From the UHGV virus genome UHGV-1681308: 17,734 bases of DNA. One strand, 5' to 3'. The notes beneath the pieces are model-generated. The model was given only the letters and a program-made list of their open reading frames with translations, was not told the DNA's origin and ran no database searches. The stretch's first letter is position 1, and the number at the start of each line of letters is the position of its first letter. The position numbers and the translations under genes were made by a program. Source of the stretch: a virus. This document shows positions 1 to 17,734 of this stretch, one piece after another.

Positions 1-119
1 ATGTTGCAACCGTGGGTCACACGGTAAGAGGCGCGGTGATGGTGCTTGTGACATTTGTCACAAGCACCAAGTGATCCGCGAAGACAATCCGGTGCAACGC
101 CGGATGAGATCATGACAGT
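1..119 (+). mobile_element. tnpB: 3' terminus of a TnpB/IStron-type element truncated by the window edge: last 8 codons of tnpB (MLQPWVTR, stop at 25..27) plus omega-RNA scaffold to the right-end boundary
   Basis: Positions 1..119 align to 10192..10310 (3' end of the intact tnpB at 9133..10218 and its downstream region) at roughly 90% identity. Similarity stops abruptly after 119/10310. A 28-nt hairpin at 41..68 differs in stem sequence from the second copy but keeps its pairing. Confidence 0.7.
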
Positions 120-140
120 ACTATTTAACAGGAGCACACA

Positions 141-617
141 ATGACAGAGCGAGAATTGCGGCTCCGGCTGAGGCGGCTCCTGGGTACGGACAGGGGACTG
201 CCGGTCGAGAAGCTCGCTGCAGAACTGACGACACACAAGGTGGACATATTGCCGTACATGACGTGGTTGTGGAAGACACATGGACAGAAGTTCAGAGTGC
301 TGCTGACAAAGAAAGTGGCAGACTACGCAAAAGCGGCGGAAAAGGAAAAACAGAGCCTTCCGCAGCTGATCGTAAATGCTGGCACAATTTTCTTGCGACT
401 CTCAGAAGGCTCGCTTGAATCCGACAGGACTATCGAGATACTCGGTGACATGTGCGAACCTTATGCACTGTACTTCTTATTTGCAGGCGTAGGATTGCCC
501 TGCGACAAGTACCGCGCAGCAGCCAAGGAATACGCAGCTATGTTTCCTGACGCAGTGCGTGCTCTGCCTGAACCGTATAAGAAACTCGGAGAGGCTATGA
601 CACATGATACCACTTGA
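141..617 (+). CDS. hypothetical protein (158 aa), first gene downstream of the element right end
   Basis: ATG at 141 preceded by AGGAG (131..135). Stop overlaps the start of the next gene. No motif recognised. Confidence 0.6.
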   Translation: MTERELRLRLRRLLGTDRGLPVEKLAAELTTHKVDILPYMTWLWKTHGQKFRVLLTKKVADYAKAAEKEKQSLPQLIVNAGTIFLRLSEGSLESDRTIEILGDMCEPYALYFLFAGVGLPCDKYRAAAKEYAAMFPDAVRALPEPYKKLGEAMTHDTT

Positions 618-3102
618 CAAGCATGACTTGACTATGCTGCATGTGCTCAGCTCAGAGAAACTGATGCTGAAGTCGCTGAAGGCTGCCAAGGCAGGGCAGG
701 AACTGTTTCCACCGAGACGTGTACCGCATCTTGATCTGCTGTGGCGACACTTCATACGTTTCGCCATACAATCCAAGAAAGAAGGGCACTGGCTGCAGTG
801 GGACAGACAGGCGTATGTAGCTGACTGCCTCGAAGAACTGAAGCAGCGTGACGACATCAGCGACGAATGCAAAGCGCGATTCCAGGCAATATGCGTACAG
901 TATATCGGCGCTGAGCCATTGGACGCCGAGGCAGGCGACAAGCTGCTGCTGGAAGCTGTCAACGAAGCTATCAGAGCACAGATCAGCAGAGCCGTGTACA
1001 ATTCCGAGGCTTTCGACGGCATCAGACAACTGGTCAATAAAGGCGTCGCGCTGAAGGAGTCGTTGGAGACAGCTGACGAGAAGCAGAAATTGTTTGTGAA
1101 TCCGCTGCTTGAAGTCGAGACTTACCTGCATGTGTTGCCTAAGATGCCTACAGGTGTTCGCTACTTCGACAGAGTCACCAACGGCGGCATGTCTGAGGGC
1201 GAGGTAGCTTTGATTGCTGGATTGATGGGCGGTGGAAAGTGTCTTGGGAAAGACACACCCGTTCTCATGTACGACGGAACTGTAAAGAAAGTTCAGGATG
1301 TACGTGTAGGTGATCAGCTTATTGGTATGGACTCTACACCAAGAACAGTAATGTCTTTAGGTAGAGGTCGCAGTGAAATGTATAAAGTCACACCAGTAAA
1401 AGGTGATCCATTTACAGTTAACAGGTATCATATTCTGACAATGATATGCAGTGGTCCTGTAATATGGAAAGGAGTCAGATATAAACCAGGTGATCTTATT
1501 GATATCTGCGTTGAGGATCTGTACAGGCAATCCGACAGCTTTAAGTCACTTCTTAAGGTTATCAGAACAGGAGTGAACTTTAAACCTAAGGAGGAGCCTG
1601 AGTTAGATCCTTATTTTGTAGGTTTGTATTTGGGAGATGGAACGAAAGGAAAAGCCCAGATCACAACTGGTGACACAGAAGTTGTCGACTACTGTGTTAA
1701 GTATATGCAAGGTTTAGGTTTTGCATGTAATGTATCCAAAGATACTAGACATAACTGCGTTTATGTCAGTATAAGTAGAGCCAGCAACAAAACCGAAGGT
1801 GCGTTAACTATAATTCGTAGGAATACGTTTATAGATGATGAGAAGCGAATTTTGGATGTGTATAAGACTGGAAGCAGAGAGATTCGCATGAAAATACTTG
1901 CGGGTCTAGTTGACTCTGATGGATACACGCACCATGGTTTCCATGAGATAGTTACGAAGTATAGTAATCTAGCAGATGATATATGCTTCGTAGCGCGATC
2001 ATTAGGGTATGCAGCATATGTTAAAAAGTGTGAGAAAAAATGCTATAATACAGGTGCTGCAGGTACGTACTATAAGGTCAGTATATCTGGAGATTTCTCA
2101 GACTTACCTGTTTTGTTACCTAGACATAAGTTGTCAAAACGTAAGCAAGTCAAATCTGTGCTGAGGACAGGATATACTATAACCAAATTACCCGAGGATG
2201 AGTATTATGGGTTTACCATAGATGGTGATCACAGATTTCTTCTGGGTGACTTTACAATTACACATAACACAGCAACAGCAATCCAACTGGTAGGCAGTCA
2301 ACTGCTTGTAGGCAATCCAGTAGCATGGTTCACATTCGAGCAGCCGTTCGATCAGGACCTGATGCAGCGTATGGTATCCTTCATCACAGGCTACAGCCTG
2401 GACATCATACGTGGACGGGAATTCAAGGATCTGCCCGAGGACATTCGGGCAAAGTTTCTCACATTGAGCAACCAAATGTCGGACAAACTGATAGCAGCAG
2501 ACTTCTCGAACAACAACATGCTTGACAAGAACGATCCCGAGGATGATGGCTCTGTTTACAGTCTGTGCAAACGACTTGACATATGGGCTGACCAAGGCAA
2601 AGTGCCAAGCTACATCATGTTCGACTGGGTAGGCGCGGCAGTGAAACGCCTAGCGGCTGTACGCAGCATAGACATCGGGCAGATCACCAACTACATTGCG
2701 CTTGCCAATGAGATCATCGACGGTCTCGTACAGCTTGCCAAGCAGTACCATACGCGTGTAATCTTCTTTCATCAGCTGGATCCGGCGATCAAGAAGTCGC
2801 CTCCGTCCAGGAAGCCTACGACTGTGGAGCTTCAGATGATGAAGACGATGTCGAACTACACGCAGTACGCAATGGCAATCGGCAAGCGTGACGAAAATCA
2901 GCGCTGTTGGTTCATCTGCGACAAGTGCCGTAACAGCTACCCGTCAGAATGCGTCATCGAGCTGGATGGTGCACACGCCAAGTTCAATCTTCTGGAAGGA
3001 TATGCACCAGGCCGCAACGGACAGTTCATAAATATCAACGAGCTGCAGGAGGAGCTCAACGACAACAGTGACACGGCAGACAGCTACCAGCCTATAATCT
3101 GA
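604..3102 (+). CDS. intein-containing P-loop ATPase, probably a DnaB-like (SF4) replicative helicase; extein about 489 aa plus intein 343 aa
   Basis: Walker A GLMGGGK is followed immediately by Cys, and the extein resumes with T after the intein (reconstituted GLMGGGKT). C-extein has a Walker B-like YIMFDWV and a DnaB H4-like RVIFFHQLD. Extein size and P-loop position fit DnaB; a terminase or other RecA-fold ATPase is not excluded. Confidence 0.7.
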   Translation: MIPLDKHDLTMLHVLSSEKLMLKSLKAAKAGQELFPPRRVPHLDLLWRHFIRFAIQSKKEGHWLQWDRQAYVADCLEELKQRDDISDECKARFQAICVQYIGAEPLDAEAGDKLLLEAVNEAIRAQISRAVYNSEAFDGIRQLVNKGVALKESLETADEKQKLFVNPLLEVETYLHVLPKMPTGVRYFDRVTNGGMSEGEVALIAGLMGGGKCLGKDTPVLMYDGTVKKVQDVRVGDQLIGMDSTPRTVMSLGRGRSEMYKVTPVKGDPFTVNRYHILTMICSGPVIWKGVRYKPGDLIDICVEDLYRQSDSFKSLLKVIRTGVNFKPKEEPELDPYFVGLYLGDGTKGKAQITTGDTEVVDYCVKYMQGLGFACNVSKDTRHNCVYVSISRASNKTEGALTIIRRNTFIDDEKRILDVYKTGSREIRMKILAGLVDSDGYTHHGFHEIVTKYSNLADDICFVARSLGYAAYVKKCEKKCYNTGAAGTYYKVSISGDFSDLPVLLPRHKLSKRKQVKSVLRTGYTITKLPEDEYYGFTIDGDHRFLLGDFTITHNTATAIQLVGSQLLVGNPVAWFTFEQPFDQDLMQRMVSFITGYSLDIIRGREFKDLPEDIRAKFLTLSNQMSDKLIAADFSNNNMLDKNDPEDDGSVYSLCKRLDIWADQGKVPSYIMFDWVGAAVKRLAAVRSIDIGQITNYIALANEIIDGLVQLAKQYHTRVIFFHQLDPAIKKSPPSRKPTTVELQMMKTMSNYTQYAMAIGKRDENQRCWFICDKCRNSYPSECVIELDGAHAKFNLLEGYAPGRNGQFININELQEELNDNSDTADSYQPII
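1240..2268 (+). mobile_element. intein (343 aa) with LAGLIDADG homing-endonuclease domain, inserted in the Walker A P-loop
   Basis: N-terminal splicing block CLGKDTPVLMYDGT begins with Cys at 1240. Two LAGLIDADG motifs: YFVGLYLGDGTKG and KILAGLVDSDGYTHH. C-terminal block GFTIDGDHRFLLGDFTITHN is followed by the +1 nucleophile Thr at 2269. The intein DNA looks visibly AT-richer than the flanking extein. Confidence 0.85.
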
Positions 3103-5383: not shown

Positions 5384-6406
5384 ATGAAAACAAAAAGAGT
5401 ACTGAAGAAAAACGCAATCAAGGCTTACAAAGCCTTCAACAGTGACCTGACTTGCAAAGGCTTCCGGTATGAAGTCGGCAAGGAATACCACCATAAAGGC
5501 AAGCTTGAGCTGTGCGAGGCAGGCTTCCATGCCTGCCCCAAACTGACTGACTGCTTCAATTTTTACCCGTTCGATAAAACTGAAACCAGAGTGGCCGAGG
5601 TGCTCGTCTGGGGTAAAGTCGAGTACGAAGACATAGGTGACAAGCTCTGCGCCTCAAATATCAAGGTAGTCAGAGAACTTACATGGACAGAGGTGTTGTC
5701 TCTGTGTAACAGCGGCTGCCGTAACAGTGGCTACCGTAACAGCGGCTGCCGTAACAGTGGCAACGGTAACAGTGGCAACCGTAACAGTGGCAACCGTAAC
5801 AGTGGCAACCGTAACAGCGGCTACGGTAACAGCGGCGATTGTAACAGTGGCAACTGGAATAGCGGCAACAATAACAGCGGCAATGGTAACATCGGCCACC
5901 GTAACAGCGGCTGCCGTAACAGTGGCAGCTGGAACAGCGGCGACGGTAACAGTGGCTACTTAAATACTCCGGCACAAAAGTATAGCTTTATTTTTAACAA
6001 ACAAGTTGAAAAGTCAGTCTTGGCTCAGATTGAGTTTCCGGAGTTCATGTGCTTCACTTTGTCAAAATGGATACCTGACTTCATAATGTCACAGCAGGAG
6101 AAAAAGCAGCACCCTGAATACGTTACAACAGGCGGTTATCTCAAGAAGTACACATATAAGGAAGCCTTCAGGAAGTCCTTCGAGGAAGCCAGACGCAAAC
6201 CTGACTGGCCCGAACAGCTTGAGAAGCTGAAATCACTGCCTAACTTCGATGCCAAGGTATTCGAGGAGATATCAGGCATCAAATCAAACGCACTTGGAAT
6301 CAGCGCTAAGGAGCTGGCAGACAAGGCAAAGACAGCCATGGAAGTCACAATGGCGGACATAGAGAAGGTATTCGGTTGCAAAATCAAGATTGTAGAGGAG
6401 AAGTGA
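5384..6406 (+). CDS. pentapeptide-repeat protein (N-x-G-x-x type, about 17 pentads) with conserved Cys/His-containing N-terminal domain and conserved C-terminal domain; paralog 1
   Basis: ATG at 5384 with AAGGA at 5371..5375. Central region is NSGCR NSGYR NSGCR NSGNG NSGNR NSGNR NSGNR and so on. N-terminal VLKKNAIKAYKAFNSDLTCKGFRYEVGK...CEAGFHAC and C-terminal KQHPEYVTTGGY...PDWPEQL...LPNFD.KVFEEISGIK are shared with 10835..11797. Confidence 0.8.
   Translation: MKTKRVLKKNAIKAYKAFNSDLTCKGFRYEVGKEYHHKGKLELCEAGFHACPKLTDCFNFYPFDKTETRVAEVLVWGKVEYEDIGDKLCASNIKVVRELTWTEVLSLCNSGCRNSGYRNSGCRNSGNGNSGNRNSGNRNSGNRNSGYGNSGDCNSGNWNSGNNNSGNGNIGHRNSGCRNSGSWNSGDGNSGYLNTPAQKYSFIFNKQVEKSVLAQIEFPEFMCFTLSKWIPDFIMSQQEKKQHPEYVTTGGYLKKYTYKEAFRKSFEEARRKPDWPEQLEKLKSLPNFDAKVFEEISGIKSNALGISAKELADKAKTAMEVTMADIEKVFGCKIKIVEEK
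5706..5957 (+). repeat. about 17 tandem copies of a 15-bp unit (GTAACAGYGGCNNNN) encoding the pentapeptide repeats, including three consecutive identical units
   Basis: Direct reading: cgtaacagtggcaac occurs three times back-to-back around 5765..5815, flanked by near-identical units. The period of 15 nt (5 codons) keeps the frame. Confidence 0.85.
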
Positions 6407-6407
6407 T

Positions 6408-6806
6408 ATGTCAGCAAATGCTTTCTATCCGCACACAGAAAGGGAACAGTTAGCTCCTTTTGCAAACAAACGTGTGTTGGTAACCGGAAAAGTGCAGCAT
6501 ATTGCAGCGTGGATGTCTGGTAAAAGGTGGGGGTTGCGAGCTACGCTGAAGCAGTGCAGAGTCAAGCATGGTAATATTCAAGTAAGTGTCGACCATTTTA
6601 CAGTCAACGTTGGTAAGCAGTTTATTGCCGTTCAAGCTAAAAGGAACACAACAGTATCTTTCTATGCCACAGTTAAGGCGTACCAGCCTGACAAACAGCT
6701 GAAATATGTACCGGATGATGTCAAGATCGCTCTTGGTTTTACGCCAAGAGTACCATCATATGGTATCAAATGGCCTACAAGGGTCGAGGTGCTCCATCGA
6801 TGCTAG
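6408..6806 (+). CDS. hypothetical protein (132 aa)
   Basis: ATG at 6408 is 1 nt after the stop of the preceding gene, with GAGGAG at 6395..6400. No motif recognised. Confidence 0.6.
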   Translation: MSANAFYPHTEREQLAPFANKRVLVTGKVQHIAAWMSGKRWGLRATLKQCRVKHGNIQVSVDHFTVNVGKQFIAVQAKRNTTVSFYATVKAYQPDKQLKYVPDDVKIALGFTPRVPSYGIKWPTRVEVLHRC

Positions 6807-7288
6807 TACGTGTAATTCCAAGGTACCTTATGGTACAGCTGTATAACAAGCATGTAGAAACTGGCGATACGGATGTGTTTCTTGACGGAAACCACTTTAT
6901 TTCCATTTACAGCACCAGAGATATGTCACCTTTGCCGGATCATCCACACGTATTTAAATTGATGTGCGATGATCTGACACTTGCTGATATGCGCATGTTC
7001 ACAGAGGATGGCTGGAATCATGTTACACTGTTTGATGAGGACATGGCAGACAAGATCGCAGCTTTCATAAAGAGCATTCCTGATACATGCAACTCACTTA
7101 TAGTGCACTGTGATGCAGGTGTCTCAAGATCAGGTGCTATAGGAATACTTGCCAACAGATACTTTAACGATGAAGGCAGCGCTGACGACGAGAAGTTCCA
7201 GCATGATTCGATGCCTTGGCTATCGCCAAACTCGCACATATTGATGCTTCTCAGACCCAGACTGCAAAGAAAGGAAACAAATGTCTAA
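6800..7288 (+). CDS. dual-specificity / protein-tyrosine-type (CX5R) phosphatase
   Basis: Active-site signature VHCDAGVSRSGAIG matches the cysteine-phosphatase P-loop (V)HCxAGxxR(S/T)G. Start is uncertain: the longest ORF begins at 6770 without an RBS; ATG 6800 (GAGGTG upstream, overlaps the previous stop) is preferred; ATG 6830 is also possible. Confidence 0.7.
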   Translation: MLVRVIPRYLMVQLYNKHVETGDTDVFLDGNHFISIYSTRDMSPLPDHPHVFKLMCDDLTLADMRMFTEDGWNHVTLFDEDMADKIAAFIKSIPDTCNSLIVHCDAGVSRSGAIGILANRYFNDEGSADDEKFQHDSMPWLSPNSHILMLLRPRLQRKETNV

Positions 7289-8234: not shown

Positions 8235-8460
8235 TCTTGATGTAGATGTGTCGGACCTTATGTGTCCGCACTGCGGTTCTGTCGACAGTGTCAAGTTGAT
8301 CGACCTTGGACCCGAACGAGATGCAGAGGGCGAATACGGTAACGTCAGATGCACCTGCTATGAGTGCGGCTGGTCGACATGTGACATGGATACAGCAGAG
8401 GACGCAGTGTACGCTTTTATCATCGGTCTCGACTGTGATATCAGGCACGACATAATATGA
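8221..8460 (+). CDS. small zinc-ribbon protein (about 79 aa)
   Basis: CPHCG ... CTCYECG four-Cys pattern. The ORF is open from 8059, but that part overlaps the preceding gene, so the start is placed at ATG 8221. Stop overlaps the next start (ATGA). Confidence 0.45.
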   Translation: MQTVNLDVDVSDLMCPHCGSVDSVKLIDLGPERDAEGEYGNVRCTCYECGWSTCDMDTAEDAVYAFIIGLDCDIRHDII

Positions 8461-8657
8461 AACCGATAGGCTACGGGAAGCTCACCAAGTTCCTCAAAGC
8501 CACAGCACCGATATCAAAGCAGTTTGAGAACGAAGTTCTGCGGGATGAGCGTCTCGCAGAACTTTTTTCGTGTGTAGCTGAGGTTGTGCTGCCGAAAGCT
8601 ACAGAACCGCAGAGATGGGCGTTGTGGCAGTGTTTCAAGGGTCTGAAAGGCGTTTAA
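8457..8657 (+). CDS. hypothetical protein (66 aa)
   Basis: ATG at 8457 overlapping the upstream stop. Ends 27 nt before the IStron left end. Confidence 0.45.
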   Translation: MKPIGYGKLTKFLKATAPISKQFENEVLRDERLAELFSCVAEVVLPKATEPQRWALWQCFKGLKGV

Positions 8658-8683
8658 CAACGCCCTTTAACCAGTGATGGCTA

Positions 8684-9110
8684 TCGAACAAGAAAGTGAA
8701 TTGCTAATAGATCCCAAGAGCCTCACGACGCCTGTAACAAGGATCGAAAGAGAAAACAAAGAAGTGAGGATACCGCAAGGCGACAGTAAGCCTAAACGGG
8801 AGTGACAACGGACGTTTAGCAGCCGAGCCATGCGTTCGACAGAACGCCAGCGCATGGAAGGTTCATCGACTATCCCAGATGGGAGTACCCGAGTAGCCAT
8901 GCTGCGACAGCAGCAAAAGTAAGGGGAAGCACTCTGGCTCAGGAATGAGTCAATGATATAGTCAGTGCTTCATGGAAACATGAAGAGTGGTCTCCTATTG
9001 ACACGGAGAAACCTGCTGTTACCCTGGCAAGGTACAGTGAACAGAACCATGGTCTCATTAAATGCAACATTAATTTGACGTTTTGATTTTCTGTATAAGG
9101 ATGTATATTA
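8684..9110 (+). ncRNA. putative group I intron ribozyme core (IStron intron module)
   Basis: R-like element GTTCATCGACTATCC (8861..8875) and S-like element GATATAGTC (8955..8963) can form P7 (GACTA/TAGTC). Several hairpins lie between them and upstream (ctaaacg/cgtttag at 8792..8819, gcgttc-gaca-gaacgc at 8832..8847, gctgc-gaca-gcagc at 8901..8914). No ORF. Not verified by a covariance model. Confidence 0.5.
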
Positions 9111-9132
9111 TCTGTATACAATAAGGAGTGCC

Positions 9133-10218
9133 ATGTACAGAGCCCACAAGATACGCATAGATTGCACAAGAGAGCAGCACAGCCTGTTAATGCAGACTGC
9201 TGGCTGCGCTCGTTATGCGTACAATTGGGGACTCGATAAGTGGGGCAAGATGTACGAAGCCTGGAAGGCTGATGCCTCGCAGGAGAAACCGGACAGATAT
9301 TCTGTAGCCAGACAGTGGACACAGGAGAAACCAGAGTGGGCAAATAAGACATCCAGAAGTCCAGTTGACTACTCTTTTATCAACCTCGGCACCGCCTTCA
9401 AGAACTTCTCAAGGCGCAAAACAAAGTACCCGAAGAAGCACAAGAGGTCACAGGGAATCTCATTCCAAGTGGCACCTGACAAGGCAGCTATAGTTGACAA
9501 CCAACTTAGACTGCCTAACATAGACTACGTGAAGCTCCGAGAGACTCCACGCTTCCAGGGCAAGATAACAGGCTACACAGTTCAGTACATAGCTTCCCAC
9601 TGGTACGTTACAATCGCCTTCGACTGTCCAGACGTCCCAAAAGAAGCACCGGAGTCCGTCGTCGGTATCGACGTAGGACTCCAGCACCCTGCTGTAGCCT
9701 CCGATGGCACCAAACTAGAGCTCCCCATAGAGAAGCTCCAAAAGCTCGAAGTCAAGAAACGTAGAGCACAGCGAGCCCTCAGCAGGAGCAAGAGAAACTC
9801 CAATGCGCGAAAGCGCAAGCGTACCAAACTCCAGCGTATACAACAGAAGATTACCAACATCCGTCAGGATGCAGCCCACAAGTTTACAACTACGGTGAGC
9901 AAAAACCACGCCACTGTAGTCACAGAAGATCTGGACATAAGTGAGCTCCAAAAGAAGGCCCCCGCACGTTCAGTGCGCAGAGCATACAACAGCTCCCTTA
10001 TGGGAACCATTCTTTGGCAGATCTCGTACAAAGCGGTGCACCATATCAAGGCACCAAAGTACTTTCCGAGCACCAAGAGATGCTCAACTTGTGGACATGT
10101 GAAGGAGGCTATGCCTCCGAACGTCAGGACATATCATTGCGACCACTGCGGTACACATCTCGATAGAGATGAGAACGCAGCTCGCAACTTGATGTTGCAA
10201 CCGTGGGTCACACGGTAA
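9133..10218 (+). CDS. tnpB: TnpB (OrfB) RuvC-like RNA-guided nuclease, IS200/IS605 family
   Basis: 361 aa. N-terminus MYRAHKIRIDCTREQHSLL...RYAYNWGL. RuvC-I GIDVGL, RuvC-II VVTEDLD, zinc finger CSTCGH...CDHCG, RuvC-III DRDENAARNL. RBS AAGGAG at 9123..9128. Confidence 0.9.
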   Translation: MYRAHKIRIDCTREQHSLLMQTAGCARYAYNWGLDKWGKMYEAWKADASQEKPDRYSVARQWTQEKPEWANKTSRSPVDYSFINLGTAFKNFSRRKTKYPKKHKRSQGISFQVAPDKAAIVDNQLRLPNIDYVKLRETPRFQGKITGYTVQYIASHWYVTIAFDCPDVPKEAPESVVGIDVGLQHPAVASDGTKLELPIEKLQKLEVKKRRAQRALSRSKRNSNARKRKRTKLQRIQQKITNIRQDAAHKFTTTVSKNHATVVTEDLDISELQKKAPARSVRRAYNSSLMGTILWQISYKAVHHIKAPKYFPSTKRCSTCGHVKEAMPPNVRTYHCDHCGTHLDRDENAARNLMLQPWVTR

Positions 10219-10326
10219 GAGGCGCGGTGATGGTACAGGCAGCATTCGCTGCAGGTACCAGATGATCCGCGAAGACAATCCGGTGTAACGCCGGATGAGA
10301 TCATGACAGTGCGTGTAACACATCGA
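10120..10326 (+). ncRNA. putative TnpB omega RNA (reRNA) scaffold overlapping the tnpB 3' end, plus about 16 nt of flank as guide (gcgtgtaacacatcga)
   Basis: Scaffold conserved with the copy at 1..119, including a hairpin at 10232..10259 with compensatory stem changes and a second conserved hairpin atccggtg-taa-cgccggat. Conservation ends exactly at 10310. The 5' boundary is a guess. Confidence 0.5.
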
Positions 10327-10834
10327 CATATAGTGTCCTGTATCTGCAGAGCAGCAGCAAACCTGCACTACATCCACGAGGGTATCGCACCCTTCTATTG
10401 GGATGGCAACAGGGCAGCTGCTGTGATGAATTGTCTAGGTATAGAACAAGATGTAGCCGCTAAAGGAAAGCGCAGACTGCTAGTGCATTTGATGTGTCTG
10501 CTGGGTGAACCTGCCGGACTGATGTTCAAGGTATCTCTGAGCTGCAACATGCTGGAGTACTTGCTGGGCAAACATTTTGGCGTCTCTTTTCGAAAGTATA
10601 ATGCAGCGGCTGAAGAGATCGCCGGTTGTGTCTTCAAGTGCACAGTAAGTGAGGACACAGCAGGGGCCTATCTAGCGGATTTCAGCGCAACACAAGCTAT
10701 GAAAGACCACAACAGAAAGCTGGCAGAGATGCGCATAAACCCAAGAAAATGTAAAACACCTGCAATGCCATGTGCATCCTGTACTAAAACCAGGGCTCAG
10801 TGCATTTTGGCATGTAAAGTTAAGGACAAACAAA

Positions 10835-11797
10835 ATGAAAACAGAAAAAGTACTGAAGAAAAATGCAATCAAGGCCTATAAAGCCTTCAACAGCGACCTG
10901 ACCTGCAGAGGCTTCCAATATGAAGTCGGTAAGACCTACAGACATATATTCCTAATCCGCTGTTGCGAGTCAGGATTCCATGCTTGTGAAAGGCTGGTTG
11001 ACTGCTTTGGCTACTATGAACCAAACCAAGCAAAAACTCGAATTTGCGAGGTTCTGGTCTGGGGCGATATTCAGAGGCATGATAAAGACACCAAGTTATG
11101 CGCATCCAGAATCCATATTGTCAAAGAGTTGTCCTGGAACAAAGTATGTCGTCTATGCAATAATACCGGCATCGGCAATCAGGGCTTATATAACTCTGGG
11201 AATTATAACAGTGGAAACTCAAATTCCGGTAACTGGAATGCAGGCAATAACAACAAAGGTAAGTACAATTCAGGTGATTGTAACATTGGTTTAGGTAATG
11301 TAGGCACAGGCAATATAGGCAATAATAACTGTGGCCAATATAATTACGGTCATAGGAATTCCGGAAACAATAACATAGGATGCCGCAATGTAGGAAACTA
11401 CAATACGGGCTACTATAATGTCGGTAACTGGAACAAAGGGTCGTTTAATATCGGCTGCTTCAATACAGCAGATGCCATTGTACATATGTTTAACAAGCCT
11501 GTTGTCGGAATCAGTCCATTCGATATTTTAGTCCCAGGTTTCTGCATCTTTGATACGACAGAATGGGTGTCGGCCAGATGTATGACAGATGAAGAAAAGA
11601 AGCAGCACCCTGAGTACGTTACAACAGGAGGATACCAAAAACAATACGCCTACAAGGAAGCCTTCAGGAAGTCCTTCGAGAAGGCAAAGCGACTCCCAGA
11701 TTGGCCCGAACAGCTTAAGAGGCTAAAGGCGCTGCCGAATTTCGATGTAAAGGTATTTGAGGAGATATCAGGTATCAAGGAAGAGGAACTTATGTAA
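10835..11797 (+). CDS. pentapeptide-repeat protein (degenerate N-x-G-x-x repeats), paralog 2 of 5384..6406
   Basis: ATG at 10835 with AAGGA at 10822..10826; the RBS and first ~110 nt are roughly 90% identical to paralog 1. Repeat region GNYNSGNSNSGNWNAGNNNKGKYNSGDCNIGLGNVGTGNIGNNN... The conserved C-terminal domain ends ...FEEISGIKEEELM. Confidence 0.8.
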   Translation: MKTEKVLKKNAIKAYKAFNSDLTCRGFQYEVGKTYRHIFLIRCCESGFHACERLVDCFGYYEPNQAKTRICEVLVWGDIQRHDKDTKLCASRIHIVKELSWNKVCRLCNNTGIGNQGLYNSGNYNSGNSNSGNWNAGNNNKGKYNSGDCNIGLGNVGTGNIGNNNCGQYNYGHRNSGNNNIGCRNVGNYNTGYYNVGNWNKGSFNIGCFNTADAIVHMFNKPVVGISPFDILVPGFCIFDTTEWVSARCMTDEEKKQHPEYVTTGGYQKQYAYKEAFRKSFEKAKRLPDWPEQLKRLKALPNFDVKVFEEISGIKEEELM

Positions 11798-13324: not shown

Positions 13325-14665
13325 ATGAAAAAAGGACTCGGAAACCTGCTGGATGCACTCAGTAAGGCAGACGGCGGCGTCAGTATGTCCATTACAGAAT
13401 TCAAAGAAGCCCAGTACGGCATTCCGCTTAAGCATTACTGTTTGCAGTATCTTTTCGGCAGCACCGGGCTCAGGTACGGCGGCTTTTATCTGCTTGCCGG
13501 TAAGCCGAAGTCGTGCAAATCGCCCTTTGCTTTCTTCCTTGCACATCTCAGCTGCGAGAATGATGGCATTGCATATGTGTACGAACTTGAAGGCAAGGCG
13601 TCACCGACGTTGCTGACCAGCATGTTTGCAGACAGGCCCGAATGGCGAGAGGATGGCGGCCCTTTCAAGCTCATCCGAGGACTGACATTGGACGGCGCCG
13701 AGAAGCACCTTACAAAGTCTGTGCTCAAACTTTTCAAGCAGTACGAGGTTTACGATACTCCGCTGCTGATCGACTGGGACTCCATCTCAGGAGCTGCGAT
13801 GTCAGATGTCGTGTCCAAGATCGAGAAGGAAGGCGTAGCCAGTAAAGGCTACTATGAAAAAGCGCACATCATGAAGCATCTGACAGAGAGCTGGGTCGCA
13901 CTTACCAACAACATGCCTGTCGTGTTCGTCGGCGTCTTGCAGGAAAAGGAAAAGGCTGCAGAGGGATGGGCACCTGCAGGCGGACCGCAGAAGTCGTATG
14001 GCGGTGGCGATTCGCAGTTGTTCAAGGCAGGTACATTACTGTCGTTCTCTCACAGCACGCTGCAGAACGGTGCTGGCAAGCTCGTTCGTATCAAGACTGC
14101 ACTGAACGGATTTGCAGACAGCAGAGGCATTGAAGTAAAGTTTGTCTGGGATCAGTTCGGCGACCTTGAGACCGATTCACAGGGGCACAAGTGGCTTTTC
14201 GCAGAGGCGACGGCAAAGTGCCTCGCACAGCCGAAGATCGTAGGCGAGCTCAGAGACATCATTGATGTGAAGATCAATGATTCCGGCGACAGAGTGACTT
14301 GCAAGACGTTCGGTCTTGACAAGGTTACAGCAACAGAGTTCGAGGAAGCCCTGTTTGCGCCTGAGAACGCCAAGGTACTGGAAGATCTGTACAGATACCA
14401 AAAGATAGAAAAGATCAAGCTGCCCTCAGAGTATGCAGCTTACGCCGAGAAAGCAGGAGACAAGGAAGCCGCATATAAAGAGGCGCAGAAGCAGGCACAG
14501 CTCGAAGAGCGTGAGGCCAAGGCTGCGGAAGCTGCCGCAAAGGAAGCAGCCAAGCAGGCAAAACGAGAGGCGAAAGTCAAGAAGTCAGCTGCGGCATCCA
14601 ATCCGTTAGCGGCTTTAGCAGACATGGCAAAGAAAGCTGAGGCATCAGATGCAAAAGCTGAATAA
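13325..14665 (+). CDS. RecA-family recombinase, UvsX-like, with a Lys/Ala/Glu-rich low-complexity C-terminal tail
   Basis: Variant Walker A LLAGKPKSCKS resembles the T4 UvsX GPSKSFKS type. Walker B-like PLLIDWDS. L2-like GGPQKSYGGGDSQLFKAG. YVYELEGKASPTLLTSMFADRPEW resembles the UvsX segment after Walker A. RBS GAGGAG at 13314..13319. Confidence 0.7.
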   Translation: MKKGLGNLLDALSKADGGVSMSITEFKEAQYGIPLKHYCLQYLFGSTGLRYGGFYLLAGKPKSCKSPFAFFLAHLSCENDGIAYVYELEGKASPTLLTSMFADRPEWREDGGPFKLIRGLTLDGAEKHLTKSVLKLFKQYEVYDTPLLIDWDSISGAAMSDVVSKIEKEGVASKGYYEKAHIMKHLTESWVALTNNMPVVFVGVLQEKEKAAEGWAPAGGPQKSYGGGDSQLFKAGTLLSFSHSTLQNGAGKLVRIKTALNGFADSRGIEVKFVWDQFGDLETDSQGHKWLFAEATAKCLAQPKIVGELRDIIDVKINDSGDRVTCKTFGLDKVTATEFEEALFAPENAKVLEDLYRYQKIEKIKLPSEYAAYAEKAGDKEAAYKEAQKQAQLEEREAKAAEAAAKEAAKQAKREAKVKKSAAASNPLAALADMAKKAEASDAKAE

Positions 14666-15684: not shown

Positions 15685-16160
15685 TGCCGAATGCACAGCT
15701 TATGGCTGCGCTGCACGCAAGTACCAAAGCGTTGCGTGAAATGGCACGCGACGACGCCACATACGACTTCGTGTATGCGCACAAAAACATGTTCGTCGGC
15801 AACAGAGAAGCCTTCAAGTCTGCTGTAGCCGCGTGTCAGGAGCGCTCAGGCAGAGAGCTGCTTGACAAGCTGGATCTGCAAGAGATCTGCATCGAGAAAG
15901 TAACCGAAGCAGAACTGCTGCACAGCTGCTACTACTTTGTCGACAGTCCACTGTATAAGCGCTTCATTCAGCTCACCAGCAGGCATGGCGGCATAGGTAC
16001 GGCAATCTTCGTCGTCAACAAGCGAGGCGTTGTTGTCACTAATAAGTACAGTCTGGACGCCTACGTACGGGTCAAGCATGTACTTGGCAGCACCGGTAAG
16101 TTGCCTGACATCATGTGGGCGCCAATAGAAGACCTTAAAGGTTTCACGTTCTACAACTAA
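15684..16160 (+). CDS. hypothetical protein (158 aa)
   Basis: ATG at 15684 overlaps the upstream stop (TGATG), with GGAGGTG at 15672..15678. Confidence 0.55.
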   Translation: MPNAQLMAALHASTKALREMARDDATYDFVYAHKNMFVGNREAFKSAVAACQERSGRELLDKLDLQEICIEKVTEAELLHSCYYFVDSPLYKRFIQLTSRHGGIGTAIFVVNKRGVVVTNKYSLDAYVRVKHVLGSTGKLPDIMWAPIEDLKGFTFYN

Positions 16161-16169
16161 GGAGGTTGG

Positions 16170-17734
16170 ATGCTGGAAACAAAAGTCATGTTCAATGCCA
16201 CAGAGCTCACAATCAAAGTGTCTGTGTGGGCACGGGGCGACCCGTTCCCTGCTATTGGGCATGCTGTAGGTATAGACACAGAAACCGAACTTATTACGGA
16301 CGCCGAGCTTACGCCGCCATTGGTTGTACTCGGCGTTTTCAATCCTGCCGACATGACTTGCTACCAGATAGCATGGAGTGATGCACAGTACTTCATGCAG
16401 GAGCTGCTTAAGCGTGACTGCAAGCTGTACTTCGCCAATGCAGGGTTCGACTACTTCGAGCTGGAGAGTGATGAGCTTCGGGATGCGGTCAGCAATGACC
16501 GTCTCGTAGACTTGCTCATCAGAGCTCCGCTTAAAGAGATCGCCACTATAGGGTACATCAGAACGCACAGCCTGAAGGACGCCTGCCAATGGCATCTCAA
16601 TTACGAGATGGACAAACATGAGGACGAAGGCGACCAGGCAGCTCGTGTCACGTTCCGCAGGAACAAAGACATCACAGATGAGCAGCGCATTTACCTGGCA
16701 ATCGACTGCGCGGCTACTTATTACGGGTGCGAGGCGATTGGTCCTCAGGCGACAGAGTGTACACATACACGCGGTCAGATAGTCCTGTATCATATCAGCA
16801 AGAACGGTTTTCCGTACGACCCGTACATGTTCGACTACTGCGAGAAGCTGCTGCAGCAGCATATGGATCAGTATCGTGCAGAGCTCATCACGTACGGGTA
16901 TCCGGATCCGTACAAGAAAGATATGCCCACTGAAATCAAGCAGCTGCAGGACGGCTGGCCTATGTTCAGGGACGCCTGGTTCGCTGCGCATATCAAAGAA
17001 AAGTACCAGTTCGAGGACTCGCTGCCAGGCAAGAGCACAGTAAAGCGCATACTGCTGTACGGCACTGCGTATATGCAGCACGGTACAGATAAAGGCACTC
17101 TGGCGCGGGTGTTCGCAGCATTGCTGCTGCAGGACAAGAACCTGTCCAAAAAGGAACAGGCTGCATATGACCAGCTGGTGGAGGAGCACGACTTCCTGGA
17201 TGCCTGCAATGGTATCGGCAAGAAGGAGGTTTGGCCGACGCTGCTGGTCGCGTGGATGCGTGCCGAGATGGACGGCAAGGACATCGCTGGCATATGGCAG
17301 GCAGTGGACGATGCGGTGCAGGACCATCCGCAATGGTTCTGTACTGAGGAGCCTGTCAAGCCCAAGGCATTCATGCAGGACCACCTGCGGGAACTGCAGG
17401 AAAAGTACCCTGGACTGGAGTTCGACAAGACGCTTAAGTCAGGTGAGCTGAAGTGCTCAAAGAAGGACGCGTGGAAGCTGGCGGATGCGGGGGTGAACGA
17501 TCCGTTGCTGACCGCGTACGTGAACTTTGGTCATGTGCAAAAGTACAAGTCGTCGTTCACGAACAGGGAATACCTCAGGAGCGACGGCAGAGTAAGGTGC
17601 CGCTTTGGCATCGTGGAGAGCGGTCGGTTTGGCCGCTTCACACCGCGAGGTGTGTCGAACAAGAAAGTGAATTGCTGGAACACCTTAACGGGTAACGCCG
17701 AAGGCAATCAGCAGCCGAGCCTTGTATCGAGAGA
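16170..17734 (+). CDS. family-A DNA polymerase, N-terminal part (3'-5' exonuclease domain plus start of polymerase domain); runs off the window and is probably interrupted by an IStron from about 17655
   Basis: Strong RBS TAAGGAGG at 16158..16165. Exo I VGIDTETE, Exo II NAGFDYFEL, Exo III YLAIDCAATYY. The frame stays open to the window end; the track omits it only because it has no stop in the window. From 17655 the DNA matches the IStron 5' end, so sequence beyond about 17654 is probably intron, not exon. Confidence 0.65.
   Translation, partial: MLETKVMFNATELTIKVSVWARGDPFPAIGHAVGIDTETELITDAELTPPLVVLGVFNPADMTCYQIAWSDAQYFMQELLKRDCKLYFANAGFDYFELESDELRDAVSNDRLVDLLIRAPLKEIATIGYIRTHSLKDACQWHLNYEMDKHEDEGDQAARVTFRRNKDITDEQRIYLAIDCAATYYGCEAIGPQATECTHTRGQIVLYHISKNGFPYDPYMFDYCEKLLQQHMDQYRAELITYGYPDPYKKDMPTEIKQLQDGWPMFRDAWFAAHIKEKYQFEDSLPGKSTVKRILLYGTAYMQHGTDKGTLARVFAALLLQDKNLSKKEQAAYDQLVEEHDFLDACNGIGKKEVWPTLLVAWMRAEMDGKDIAGIWQAVDDAVQDHPQWFCTEEPVKPKAFMQDHLRELQEKYPGLEFDKTLKSGELKCSKKDAWKLADAGVNDPLLTAYVNFGHVQKYKSSFTNREYLRSDGRVRCRFGIVESGRFGRFTPRGVSNKKVNCWNTLTGNAEGNQQPSLVSR
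17655..17734 (+). mobile_element. 5' terminus of a second IStron-like element (group I intron module) inside the polymerase gene; truncated by the window edge
   Basis: 17655..17676 is identical (22/22) to the left end at 8684..8705. The downstream block agcagccgagcc and the taacggg segment are shared with 8792..8830. This copy lacks an ~85-nt segment present at 8706..8790. Confidence 0.5.

Follow-up and report, generated by a model that had tools for sequence, protein, structure and literature searches.

A predicted homing intein of the PI-SceI family in the Walker A loop of a DnaB/gp41-like helicase from a gut phage

The 17,734-bp metagenomic contig UHGV-1681308, analysed at its full length and referred to here as the window, carries a phage helicase gene whose P-loop is interrupted by 343 codons. 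This raises the question of what the inserted segment is, how the helicase could function in its presence and by what route it came to lie there. An earlier note, made from the sequence, had described positions 1240-2268 as a LAGLIDADG intein. With a probability of roughly nine in ten, we find 1240..2268 (plus strand, as are all coordinates below unless marked otherwise) to be a canonical homing intein of the PI-SceI family, with class 1-type residues, at the classic P-loop site of a phage DnaB/gp41-like helicase.

The helicase open reading frame (ORF), 604..3102, translates to 832 amino acids (aa). Its first 212 codons (604..1239), the N-extein, comprise the N-terminal helical domain, the linker and the start of the RecA-like core of a DnaB/gp41-like helicase, and close on the Walker A residues G-L-M-G-G-G-K (1219..1239), with the Lys212 codon AAG (1237..1239), a synonymous marker among alleles, adjoining the insertion. 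Codon 213, directly past GLMGGGK, is TGT (Cys, nucleotides (nt) 1240-1242), codons 554-555 are CAT AAC (His-Asn, nt 2263-2268), and the C-extein (2269..3102, 277 aa plus stop) opens with ACA (Thr, 2269..2271), followed by ATAIQLVG. The insertion is exactly 343 codons long, in frame, and divides the Walker A Lys from its Thr (GLMGGGK/C...HN/T, the slashes marking the junctions), so that the +1 Thr doubles as the Walker A Thr of GKT and as the predicted splicing nucleophile. Codon reading of both junctions shows the coordinates and length given in the earlier note to be correct to the base, and its layout of an initial Cys and a terminal His-Asn before Thr is likewise what we find. The segment had also been said to be richer in AT than its surroundings, and this holds: its G+C fraction (GC) is 0.393, against 0.530 and 0.514 in the N- and C-extein parts, and its GC at third codon positions (GC3) is 0.329 against 0.627 and 0.647, with composition shifting abruptly at both ends. 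No other 1029-nt stretch of the contig is as low in GC (elsewhere the minimum is 0.423), and the GC3 of the insertion lies below that of every gene in the contig (in round figures, GC 0.39 against 0.52 and GC3 0.33 against 0.64).

The inserted segment matches the Pfam families Hom_end_hint (E=8e-23, 82 bits, cut-off 32.1), Hom_end (E=3e-11, 43.8 bits, cut-off 21.1) and LAGLIDADG_3 (25.7 bits, cut-off 22.5). Searching the PDB with phmmer, the nearest solved protein by sequence is PI-SceI (E 3.6e-23), with fungal Prp8 inteins next. An AlphaFold2 (AF2) model built on 40 homologues (mean predicted local distance difference test score, pLDDT, 94.6; predicted template modelling score, pTM, 0.92) superposes in Foldseek on every PI-SceI entry (E down to 7e-26, TM 0.79 relative to query), and further matches are the Thermococcus VMA intein (TliVMA), Prp8 inteins and, for the central domain, I-DmoI. 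These matches, together with the empty alleles described below, point to a 343-aa intein of PI-SceI type, in which a Hint domain is split by a LAGLIDADG homing endonuclease domain. On the Pfam scores, the resemblance to inteins is not due to chance. Every residue expected for splicing is present. In block A lies Cys1 (1240..1242), the predicted nucleophile of the first splicing step; 38 aligned relatives are ungapped at its column, and 36 of them have Cys there. Block B, N-R-Y-H (Asn61...His64, 1420..1431), was located in the alignment of relatives, where His64 is invariant in 41 sequences and Asn61 is at least 90% conserved; it lines up with what we take to be the N-A-T-H of PI-SceI. The C-terminal Hint lobe (2140..2268), which holds zero nonsynonymous changes between alleles, contains block F (YYGFTIDGDHRFLL), with His331 within DGDHRFLL, and block G (ITHN), ending in His342-Asn343 (2263..2268), so that the C-terminal junction reads ...DGDHRFLLGDFTITHN/T. 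The terminal HN is found in 38 of 40 relatives and the +1 residue is Thr or Ser in 39 of 40. With Pfam scores above their cut-offs, both sequence and fold matching PI-SceI and all splicing residues in place, the original identification as an intein stands.

The two LAGLIDADG motifs read in it previously were also recovered, each with its acidic residue kept. The endonuclease domain (approximately intein aa 118-300, 1591..2139, delimited by Hom_end and LAGLIDADG_3) has its first motif, YFVGLYLGDG, at 1612..1641 with acidic Asp133 and its second, ILAGLVDSDG, at 1894..1923 with acidic Asp227; HMMER aligns the former to GLWIGDG and the latter to LAGLIDSDG of PI-SceI. Among relatives G128 and G132 of motif 1 are invariant and D133 is at least 90% conserved, and in motif 2 G222, D225, D227 and G228 are all invariant. 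In the AF2 model the domain twice repeats the order alpha-beta-beta-alpha-beta-beta-alpha, and its core matches I-DmoI and the endonuclease domain of PI-SceI in Foldseek. The ratio of nonsynonymous to synonymous divergence (omega) within the intein, estimated by NG86, is 0.17 in the endonuclease domain and 0.09 in the Hint parts; in the helicase exteins omega is 0.02. Both parts of the intein are thus under purifying selection, weaker than that on the helicase.

The host protein was examined as the spliced extein, that is residues 1-212 joined to 556-832 (489 aa). It scores 31.2 bits against Pfam DnaB_C (cut-off 27), 37.8 bits against the KaiC-type ATPase family of Pfam and 8e-22 against PHROG 19 (DnaB-like replicative helicase). 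In a PDB sequence search the P-loop region alone is recognisable, with KaiC as best match. Its AF2 model (pLDDT 85) matches the full-length DnaB of E. coli, Vibrio and Geobacillus (G. stearothermophilus), T4 gp41 and SPP1 G40P over about 480 columns, N-terminal helical domain included (Foldseek E 6e-17 to 1e-13). These family scores and modelled folds support a DnaB/gp41-type helicase in fold and architecture, with no close DnaB orthologue, and the host assignment made earlier, a helicase of this type with an insertion in Walker A, holds at fold level. Searches against GenBank phages gave remote partial matches alone for the spliced helicase (tblastn) and zero matches for the whole window (megablast). 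As the earlier note also held, the helicase would probably need splicing and the precursor would lack ATPase activity, because 343 residues part the Lys from the Thr of GKT and because a P-loop intein in RadA is reported to disrupt ATPase function, as is likewise assumed for DnaBi1 (PMC6195587).

If the segment is an intein, helicases lacking it should occur. Querying with the spliced extein retrieved P0001, a protein of 489 aa that is 97% identical to the predicted spliced product, has no insertion and reads ...GLMGGGKTATAIQ... across the site. A further 25 homologues (476-491 aa; 52-65% and 30% identical) are also free of the insertion; empty alleles read GGGK-TATAIQ, and the DNA of one (L002) reads ...ATGGGCGGTGGAAAA/ACAGCAACAGC... 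None of these 26 homologues carries the segment as an integral domain of the helicase, the reverse of the finding that the earlier note had named as refuting an intein. We gathered 17 complete helicase alleles from independent metagenome assemblies, of which four hold the intein (the window, L003, L006 and L029), five are empty (L002, L019, L033, L058 and L140) and eight (L001, L030, L031, L032, L034, L035, L041 and L103) carry a group I intron nearby. Among protein clusters the intein-bearing one is the largest, with 269 member sequences; the empty cluster has 69 and the intron-type clusters 72 and 57. A scan of IMG/VR with the helicase alignment yielded four loci, too few for a census. A metagenome scan with an 18-nt anchor from the N-extein listed at least 119 loci, 112 of them chance matches; the matches listed add two empty, five intron and no intein alleles, and give no frequency estimate. 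One candidate, P0029 (465 aa, from a 4-kb ENA contig), joins an ATP-grasp N-terminal half to the last approximately 225 helicase residues (97% identical) and was set aside as a probable chimeric assembly.

Comparison of the occupied alleles indicates how the intein has moved. Between L003 and L006 the synonymous divergence (dS) is 0.027 in the intein and 0.43 in the exteins; the two inteins differ at 11 of 1029 nt, and mismatches restart 19 nt before the first junction and 21 nt after the second. Between the window and L029 the p-distance is 0.009 in the intein and 0.045 in the exteins. In these two pairs the intein is hence 5-16 times less diverged than the exteins around it. The Lys codon preceding the site is AAG in all four intein alleles and AAA in all 13 intein-less ones (Fisher exact p = 4e-4), and from this marker and the resumption of mismatches we conclude that the co-converted flank spans 1 nt or more but stays below about 20 nt. 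A neighbour-joining (NJ) tree built from the exteins interleaves the three kinds of allele (intein, empty and intron): intein-bearing L006 has empty L002 as its nearest neighbour, and L003 has intron-bearing L001. One metagenome, IMG 3300045988, yielded both intein-bearing L006 and empty L019. Horizontal movement of the intein between alleles is strongly supported by these observations, and the sharp boundaries at the junctions favour homing, without proof.

The four inteins fall into two sub-lineages, window/L029 and L003/L006; between the window and L003/L006 the intein dS is about 0.30 and the extein dS 0.57-0.59. This divergence is concentrated in a central segment (aa 69-188, 1444..1803), where a mismatch map shows about 18% nucleotide difference from L003/L006 as against about 3% elsewhere; dS there (NG86) is 0.64-0.85, compared with 0.07-0.22 in the rest of the intein, and omega is 0.11-0.13. 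The window intein is therefore a mosaic of the two sub-lineages. Since the central dS is as deep as that among the helicase alleles, the intein has long been resident in this phage population, and it has stayed AT-rich. The earlier note had taken AT-richness as a sign of recent horizontal acquisition; horizontal movement is borne out by the divergence statistics, whereas the recency drawn from composition is not, and AT-richness is ruled out as a clock by the deep central divergence of the sub-lineages.

From the conserved residues, the fold and the established chemistry of canonical inteins we infer the following course. The gene would be translated as a 93.9-kDa precursor, in which Cys1 would attack the Lys212-Cys1 bond (N-to-S acyl shift) and the acyl group would be handed to the side chain of Thr+1 by trans-esterification. 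Cyclisation of Asn343 would free the 38.6-kDa intein, and an O-to-N shift would yield a 55.4-kDa helicase with its GLMGGGKT loop intact. The freed intein, a putative double-motif LAGLIDADG endonuclease, would most likely cut the uninterrupted allele ...GGCGGTGGAAAA/ACAGCAACAGC... during co-infection, and repair of the double-strand break from an intein-bearing genome would copy the intein in with a very short flank. Cleavage is here expected from membership of the LAGLIDADG family; the signature of transfer is observed in populations.

Several points weigh against this account. It draws on sequence, fold models and comparison of alleles, with splicing and DNA cleavage predicted. In an NCBIfam scan of the intein no generic intein model was matched at E <= 0.01, and the hits obtained were weak and partial, at about 21 bits, to two radical-SAM models that include inteins; we attribute this miss to limited sensitivity of the models for Hint domains of PI-SceI type, since Pfam families dedicated to such domains do score above their cut-offs. 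The helicase assignment combines fold with weak family scores, and the curated NCBIfam equivalogs for DnaB fall far short of their cut-offs (TIGR00665, 27.7 bits versus 385; TIGR03600 phage_DnaB, 23.3 bits versus 499). The extein tree is a single NJ tree of a recombining gene, drawn without bootstrap. Coverage of the window contig (ENA ERZ773229 NODE_1285) is low, 4.6x according to its name. Ordinary homologous recombination between co-infecting phages could in principle explain the transfers.

The best surviving rival is that the intein splices with an inactive endonuclease and is kept by vertical descent and occasional general recombination. Precisely this end state is found in P0028 (L004/L005), a helicase 69% identical to that of the window, with a degenerate 262-aa intein at the same site. 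That intein is 59% identical to the window intein, has an 81-residue deletion and has lost both catalytic Asp residues (LGSG, VDAVG) with splice residues intact; its GC deficit (0.43 versus 0.46-0.49) is smaller than that of the window intein. It represents a later stage of the same intein cycle. Endonuclease activity of the window copy is, moreover, a prediction from its sequence. This copy nevertheless retains both motifs and both acidic residues, its endonuclease domain is under purifying selection, and independent pairs show the reduced divergence with breakpoints no more than about 20 nt from both junctions, a pattern that random recombination would not be expected to give. We consider this rival unlikely.

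Less probable by far is that the 343 residues are a permanent, non-splicing domain of the helicase, or that this contig carries a dead, pseudogenised copy of the gene. Splicing is deduced indirectly and the contig is thinly covered, which leaves such readings some room. The segment, however, divides the Walker A Lys and Thr, is precisely missing from the 26 homologues and has every splicing residue, and the same in-frame arrangement recurs in four independent assemblies (the window, L003, L006 and L029); a dead gene is further argued against by the very strong purifying selection on the exteins at both sides. That the AT-rich block is an assembly chimera of unrelated reads within the gene, as the abrupt change in composition at both ends of a metagenomic contig might suggest, is extremely improbable, since the junctions are in frame at codon boundaries recreating GK/T and the insertion was assembled independently, with sequence variation, in ERZ773229, SRR6907988, IMG 3300045988 and ERZ13405068.

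A homing intein thus remains our reading of 1240..2268, and the eight intron-type alleles add a second occupant of the same loop. Here an insert, 308-314 nt long, splits GGT from GGA at a point 6 nt upstream of where the intein sits in other alleles; the L001 copy of this ORF-less group I intron is at approximately 6631..6940 of that contig (310 nt). The insert aligns end to end with the Rfam group I intron model (41.1 bits, E 5.7e-9), below the gathering score of 50. By eye, the exon on its 5' side closes on a U able to pair with a G of the neighbouring guide sequence, and the last nucleotide of the insert is G. Its p-distance among alleles is 0.016-0.123, as against 0.04-0.08 for the exteins; diversity is unreduced and the intron therefore behaves as an older resident, unlike the intein. 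None of the 17 alleles has both intein and intron; about 1.9 doubles would be expected under independence, and the shortfall is not significant. The Walker A codons might accordingly be a site contested between a protein-level intein and an RNA-level ORF-less group I intron from the IStron family of the phage, an idea that we hold tentatively and regard as possible rather than likely. Were it true, and should the intron split the recognition sequence of the endonuclease, the intron would confer immunity against the intein, the intein would likewise block the intron, and an uncultured gut phage would offer a natural system for competition between splicing elements at the protein and RNA levels.

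The proposed kinship of this intron with IStrons comes from a longer, TnpB-carrying element of the same phage, with which the 310-nt intron has in common the ribozyme core and the terminal ...GACAG. In the window this IStron-like element occupies 8653..10309 (junction ambiguous by 2 nt), as delimited by Rfam, NCBIfam and an empty site in L024. It comprises a group I ribozyme (8642..8985; Rfam RF00028, 31.9 bits, E 1e-5, below the gathering score), a spacer with a ribosome-binding site, a TnpB gene (9133..10218; NCBIfam guided_TnpB, 219 bits, cut-off 100) and a tail of about 90 nt ending ...GATCATGACAG; no TnpA was seen. The element splits a 239-aa gene into the window ORFs 8457..8657 and 10303..10881; L024 has this gene uninterrupted (6177..6896) and therefore defines the empty site. 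A group I ribozyme joined to TnpB, in a gene interrupted here and intact elsewhere, would on these sequence features class the element as an IStron. Copies lie at differing places in related contigs (L019, L001, L023, L028/L030, L034 and L038), and in each a guide-like 5' sequence is complementary to the exon lying upstream of that copy. The 3' end of a second copy lies at 1..118 of the window, 87% identical to 10192..10310 and with the terminal GATCATGACAG at 108..118; the assembly break at the window start is probably due to this repeat. A TnpB element 3' end is also held by the L004 (3..2345) and L005 helicase gene, in the N-terminal/linker coding region, after which the helicase exon restarts at ...KESLQAKADKTLFVNPLK. 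The second copy in the window stands directly upstream of the gene preceding the helicase, and that gene varies: in L001 (5000..5815), L030, L033 and L035 it encodes a 271-aa product bearing a formate/nitrite transporter domain (PF01226), an uncommon feature in a phage, and in other contigs, among them the window (141..617), a 158-aa unannotated protein.

Contigs related to the window measure 158-192 kb (L103, at 191,643 bp, has 58x coverage according to its name) and suggest that this human-gut phage, which has no cultured relative, has a genome of about 190 kb. The window further encodes a RecA/UvsX-like recombinase (13325..14665; PHROG 97, 3e-13), for which tblastn against GenBank phages gave zero matches, and just past it a Lar-type restriction-alleviation protein (PF14354, 14649..14990). 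Two paralogous genes, 5384..6406 and 10835..11797, combine DUF7666 with pentapeptide repeats and share about 81% nucleotide identity at their 5' ends; such genes vary in length and copy number among related contigs. Rfam matches to isrG and microRNA families on the minus strand (5675..5967), in a pentapeptide-repeat gene, were rejected as repeat artefacts far below gathering scores. The longest minus-strand ORF (15846..17384, 512 aa) overlaps a plus-strand gene (16170..17732) that runs off the contig end, and is probably a shadow ORF because the plus-strand gene (521-561 aa) is called in all related contigs.

Support for the intein is unusually good, in that empty, occupied, degenerate and alternatively occupied alleles have all been recovered. 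With the first three of these in one lineage of abundant phages of the human gut, the locus offers a well-documented natural example of a still-moving intein, with known donor and recipient sequences and a co-conversion tract of between 1 and about 20 nt. The compact 343-aa intein, with its predicted Lys/Thr splicing and predicted target ...GGCGGTGGAAAA/ACAGCAACAGC..., is a candidate rare-cutting endonuclease and splicing module. In annotation, overlooking the intein and the alternative intron will cause the helicase of this phage group to be miscalled, either as a pair of ORFs or as one protein of excessive length.

Relatives of the intein place it in a wider lineage. A large protein database contains 220 of them, of which 40 were aligned (30-47% identical). 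The nearest relatives of the full intein outside the phage group are 36-47% identical and mostly lie in AT-rich viral contigs. Those found full-length in IMG/VR (36-40% identical, in AT-rich viral contigs, some labelled as giant-virus metagenome-assembled genomes) all sit at Walker A motifs of other nucleoside triphosphatases. Host domains of relatives include ResIII helicase, thymidine kinase, KaiC/DnaB-like, AAA, terminase, PhoH and deoxynucleoside kinase, although this list of relatives holds no protein longer than about 600 aa, misses the 832-aa alleles and is probably biased to small hosts. The insertion site is in the Walker A loop in 37 of 38 aligned relatives, after the Lys in 25 and after the Gly three residues earlier in 12, and we therefore view them as a lineage of P-loop-seeking inteins. 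Terminase families of PHROG that contain inteins also match the window intein, at 1e-8 to 1e-11.

Such sites are well known. Inteins are strongly enriched in P-loop ATPases, with DnaB the commonest bacterial host and its site b in the P-loop (PMC4760082), where the P-loop Ser is also the +1 nucleophile (PMC6195587), and Lys/Thr has been termed the "classic" P-loop insertion in phage terminases (PMC5050341); the window intein, lying between the Walker A Lys and Thr with Thr as +1, is at this site as so defined. The closest parallel in host and position is offered by the DnaB site b inteins such as M. smegmatis DnaBi1 (Novikova et al. 2016, PMC4760082; Kelley et al. 2018, PMC6195587), which share with the window a DnaB-type hexameric helicase as host, insertion in Walker A, a P-loop hydroxyl residue as +1 and a precursor expected to be ATPase-dead. 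Msm DnaBi1 is, however, a class 3 mini-intein with no endonuclease and +1 Ser, whereas the window intein combines Cys1 and +1 Thr with a complete LAGLIDADG domain and belongs to the PI-SceI structural family; its host is also only distantly DnaB-like, as the NCBIfam DnaB score indicates, unlike that of DnaBi1.

The best match in sequence and fold is PI-SceI itself, the VMA1 intein of Saccharomyces cerevisiae (PDB 1vde, 1lws, 1ef0), with which the window intein has in common Hom_end_hint, Hom_end, the N-x-x-H block B, two LAGLIDADG motifs and the C-terminal ...DHxFLL...HN. The two are about 22% identical and differ in length (343 versus 454 aa), in the +1 residue (Thr versus Cys) and in host (a phage helicase versus subunit A of the yeast vacuolar ATPase). 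Aligned to what we take to be the PI-SceI sequence, the window intein presumably does without most of the DNA-recognition insert in the N-terminal lobe, which would account for its shorter length.

Mycobacteriophage TerL1-a inteins (Kelley et al. 2016, PMC5050341) resemble the window case in having phages as vehicles of intein spread. Their host protein is a terminase, in another phage group with another bacterial host, and that of the window is a helicase. Inteins in phage helicases of the DnaB/gp41 family known from metagenomes alone, as here, have a precedent in gp41-1 to gp41-8, naturally split mini-inteins of metagenomic phage gp41 helicases with a free-standing endonuclease gene between the gene halves. 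The window intein differs in being contiguous with an embedded endonuclease; the gp41-1 structure (6qaz) stands at rank 47 in the Foldseek list of the intein model.

For the exclusion of intein and intron, neighbouring inteins in haloarchaeal MCM helicase are a precedent: several selfish elements there compete for close sites in the ATPase domain of a replicative helicase and can interfere with each other's homing (PMC10643990). Both competitors are inteins in that case, whereas in the gut-phage helicase an intein and a group I intron lie 6 nt apart and the interference would be between protein-level and RNA-level elements. The biology of a P-loop intein in a replicative helicase is already established, and the window intein adds another example.

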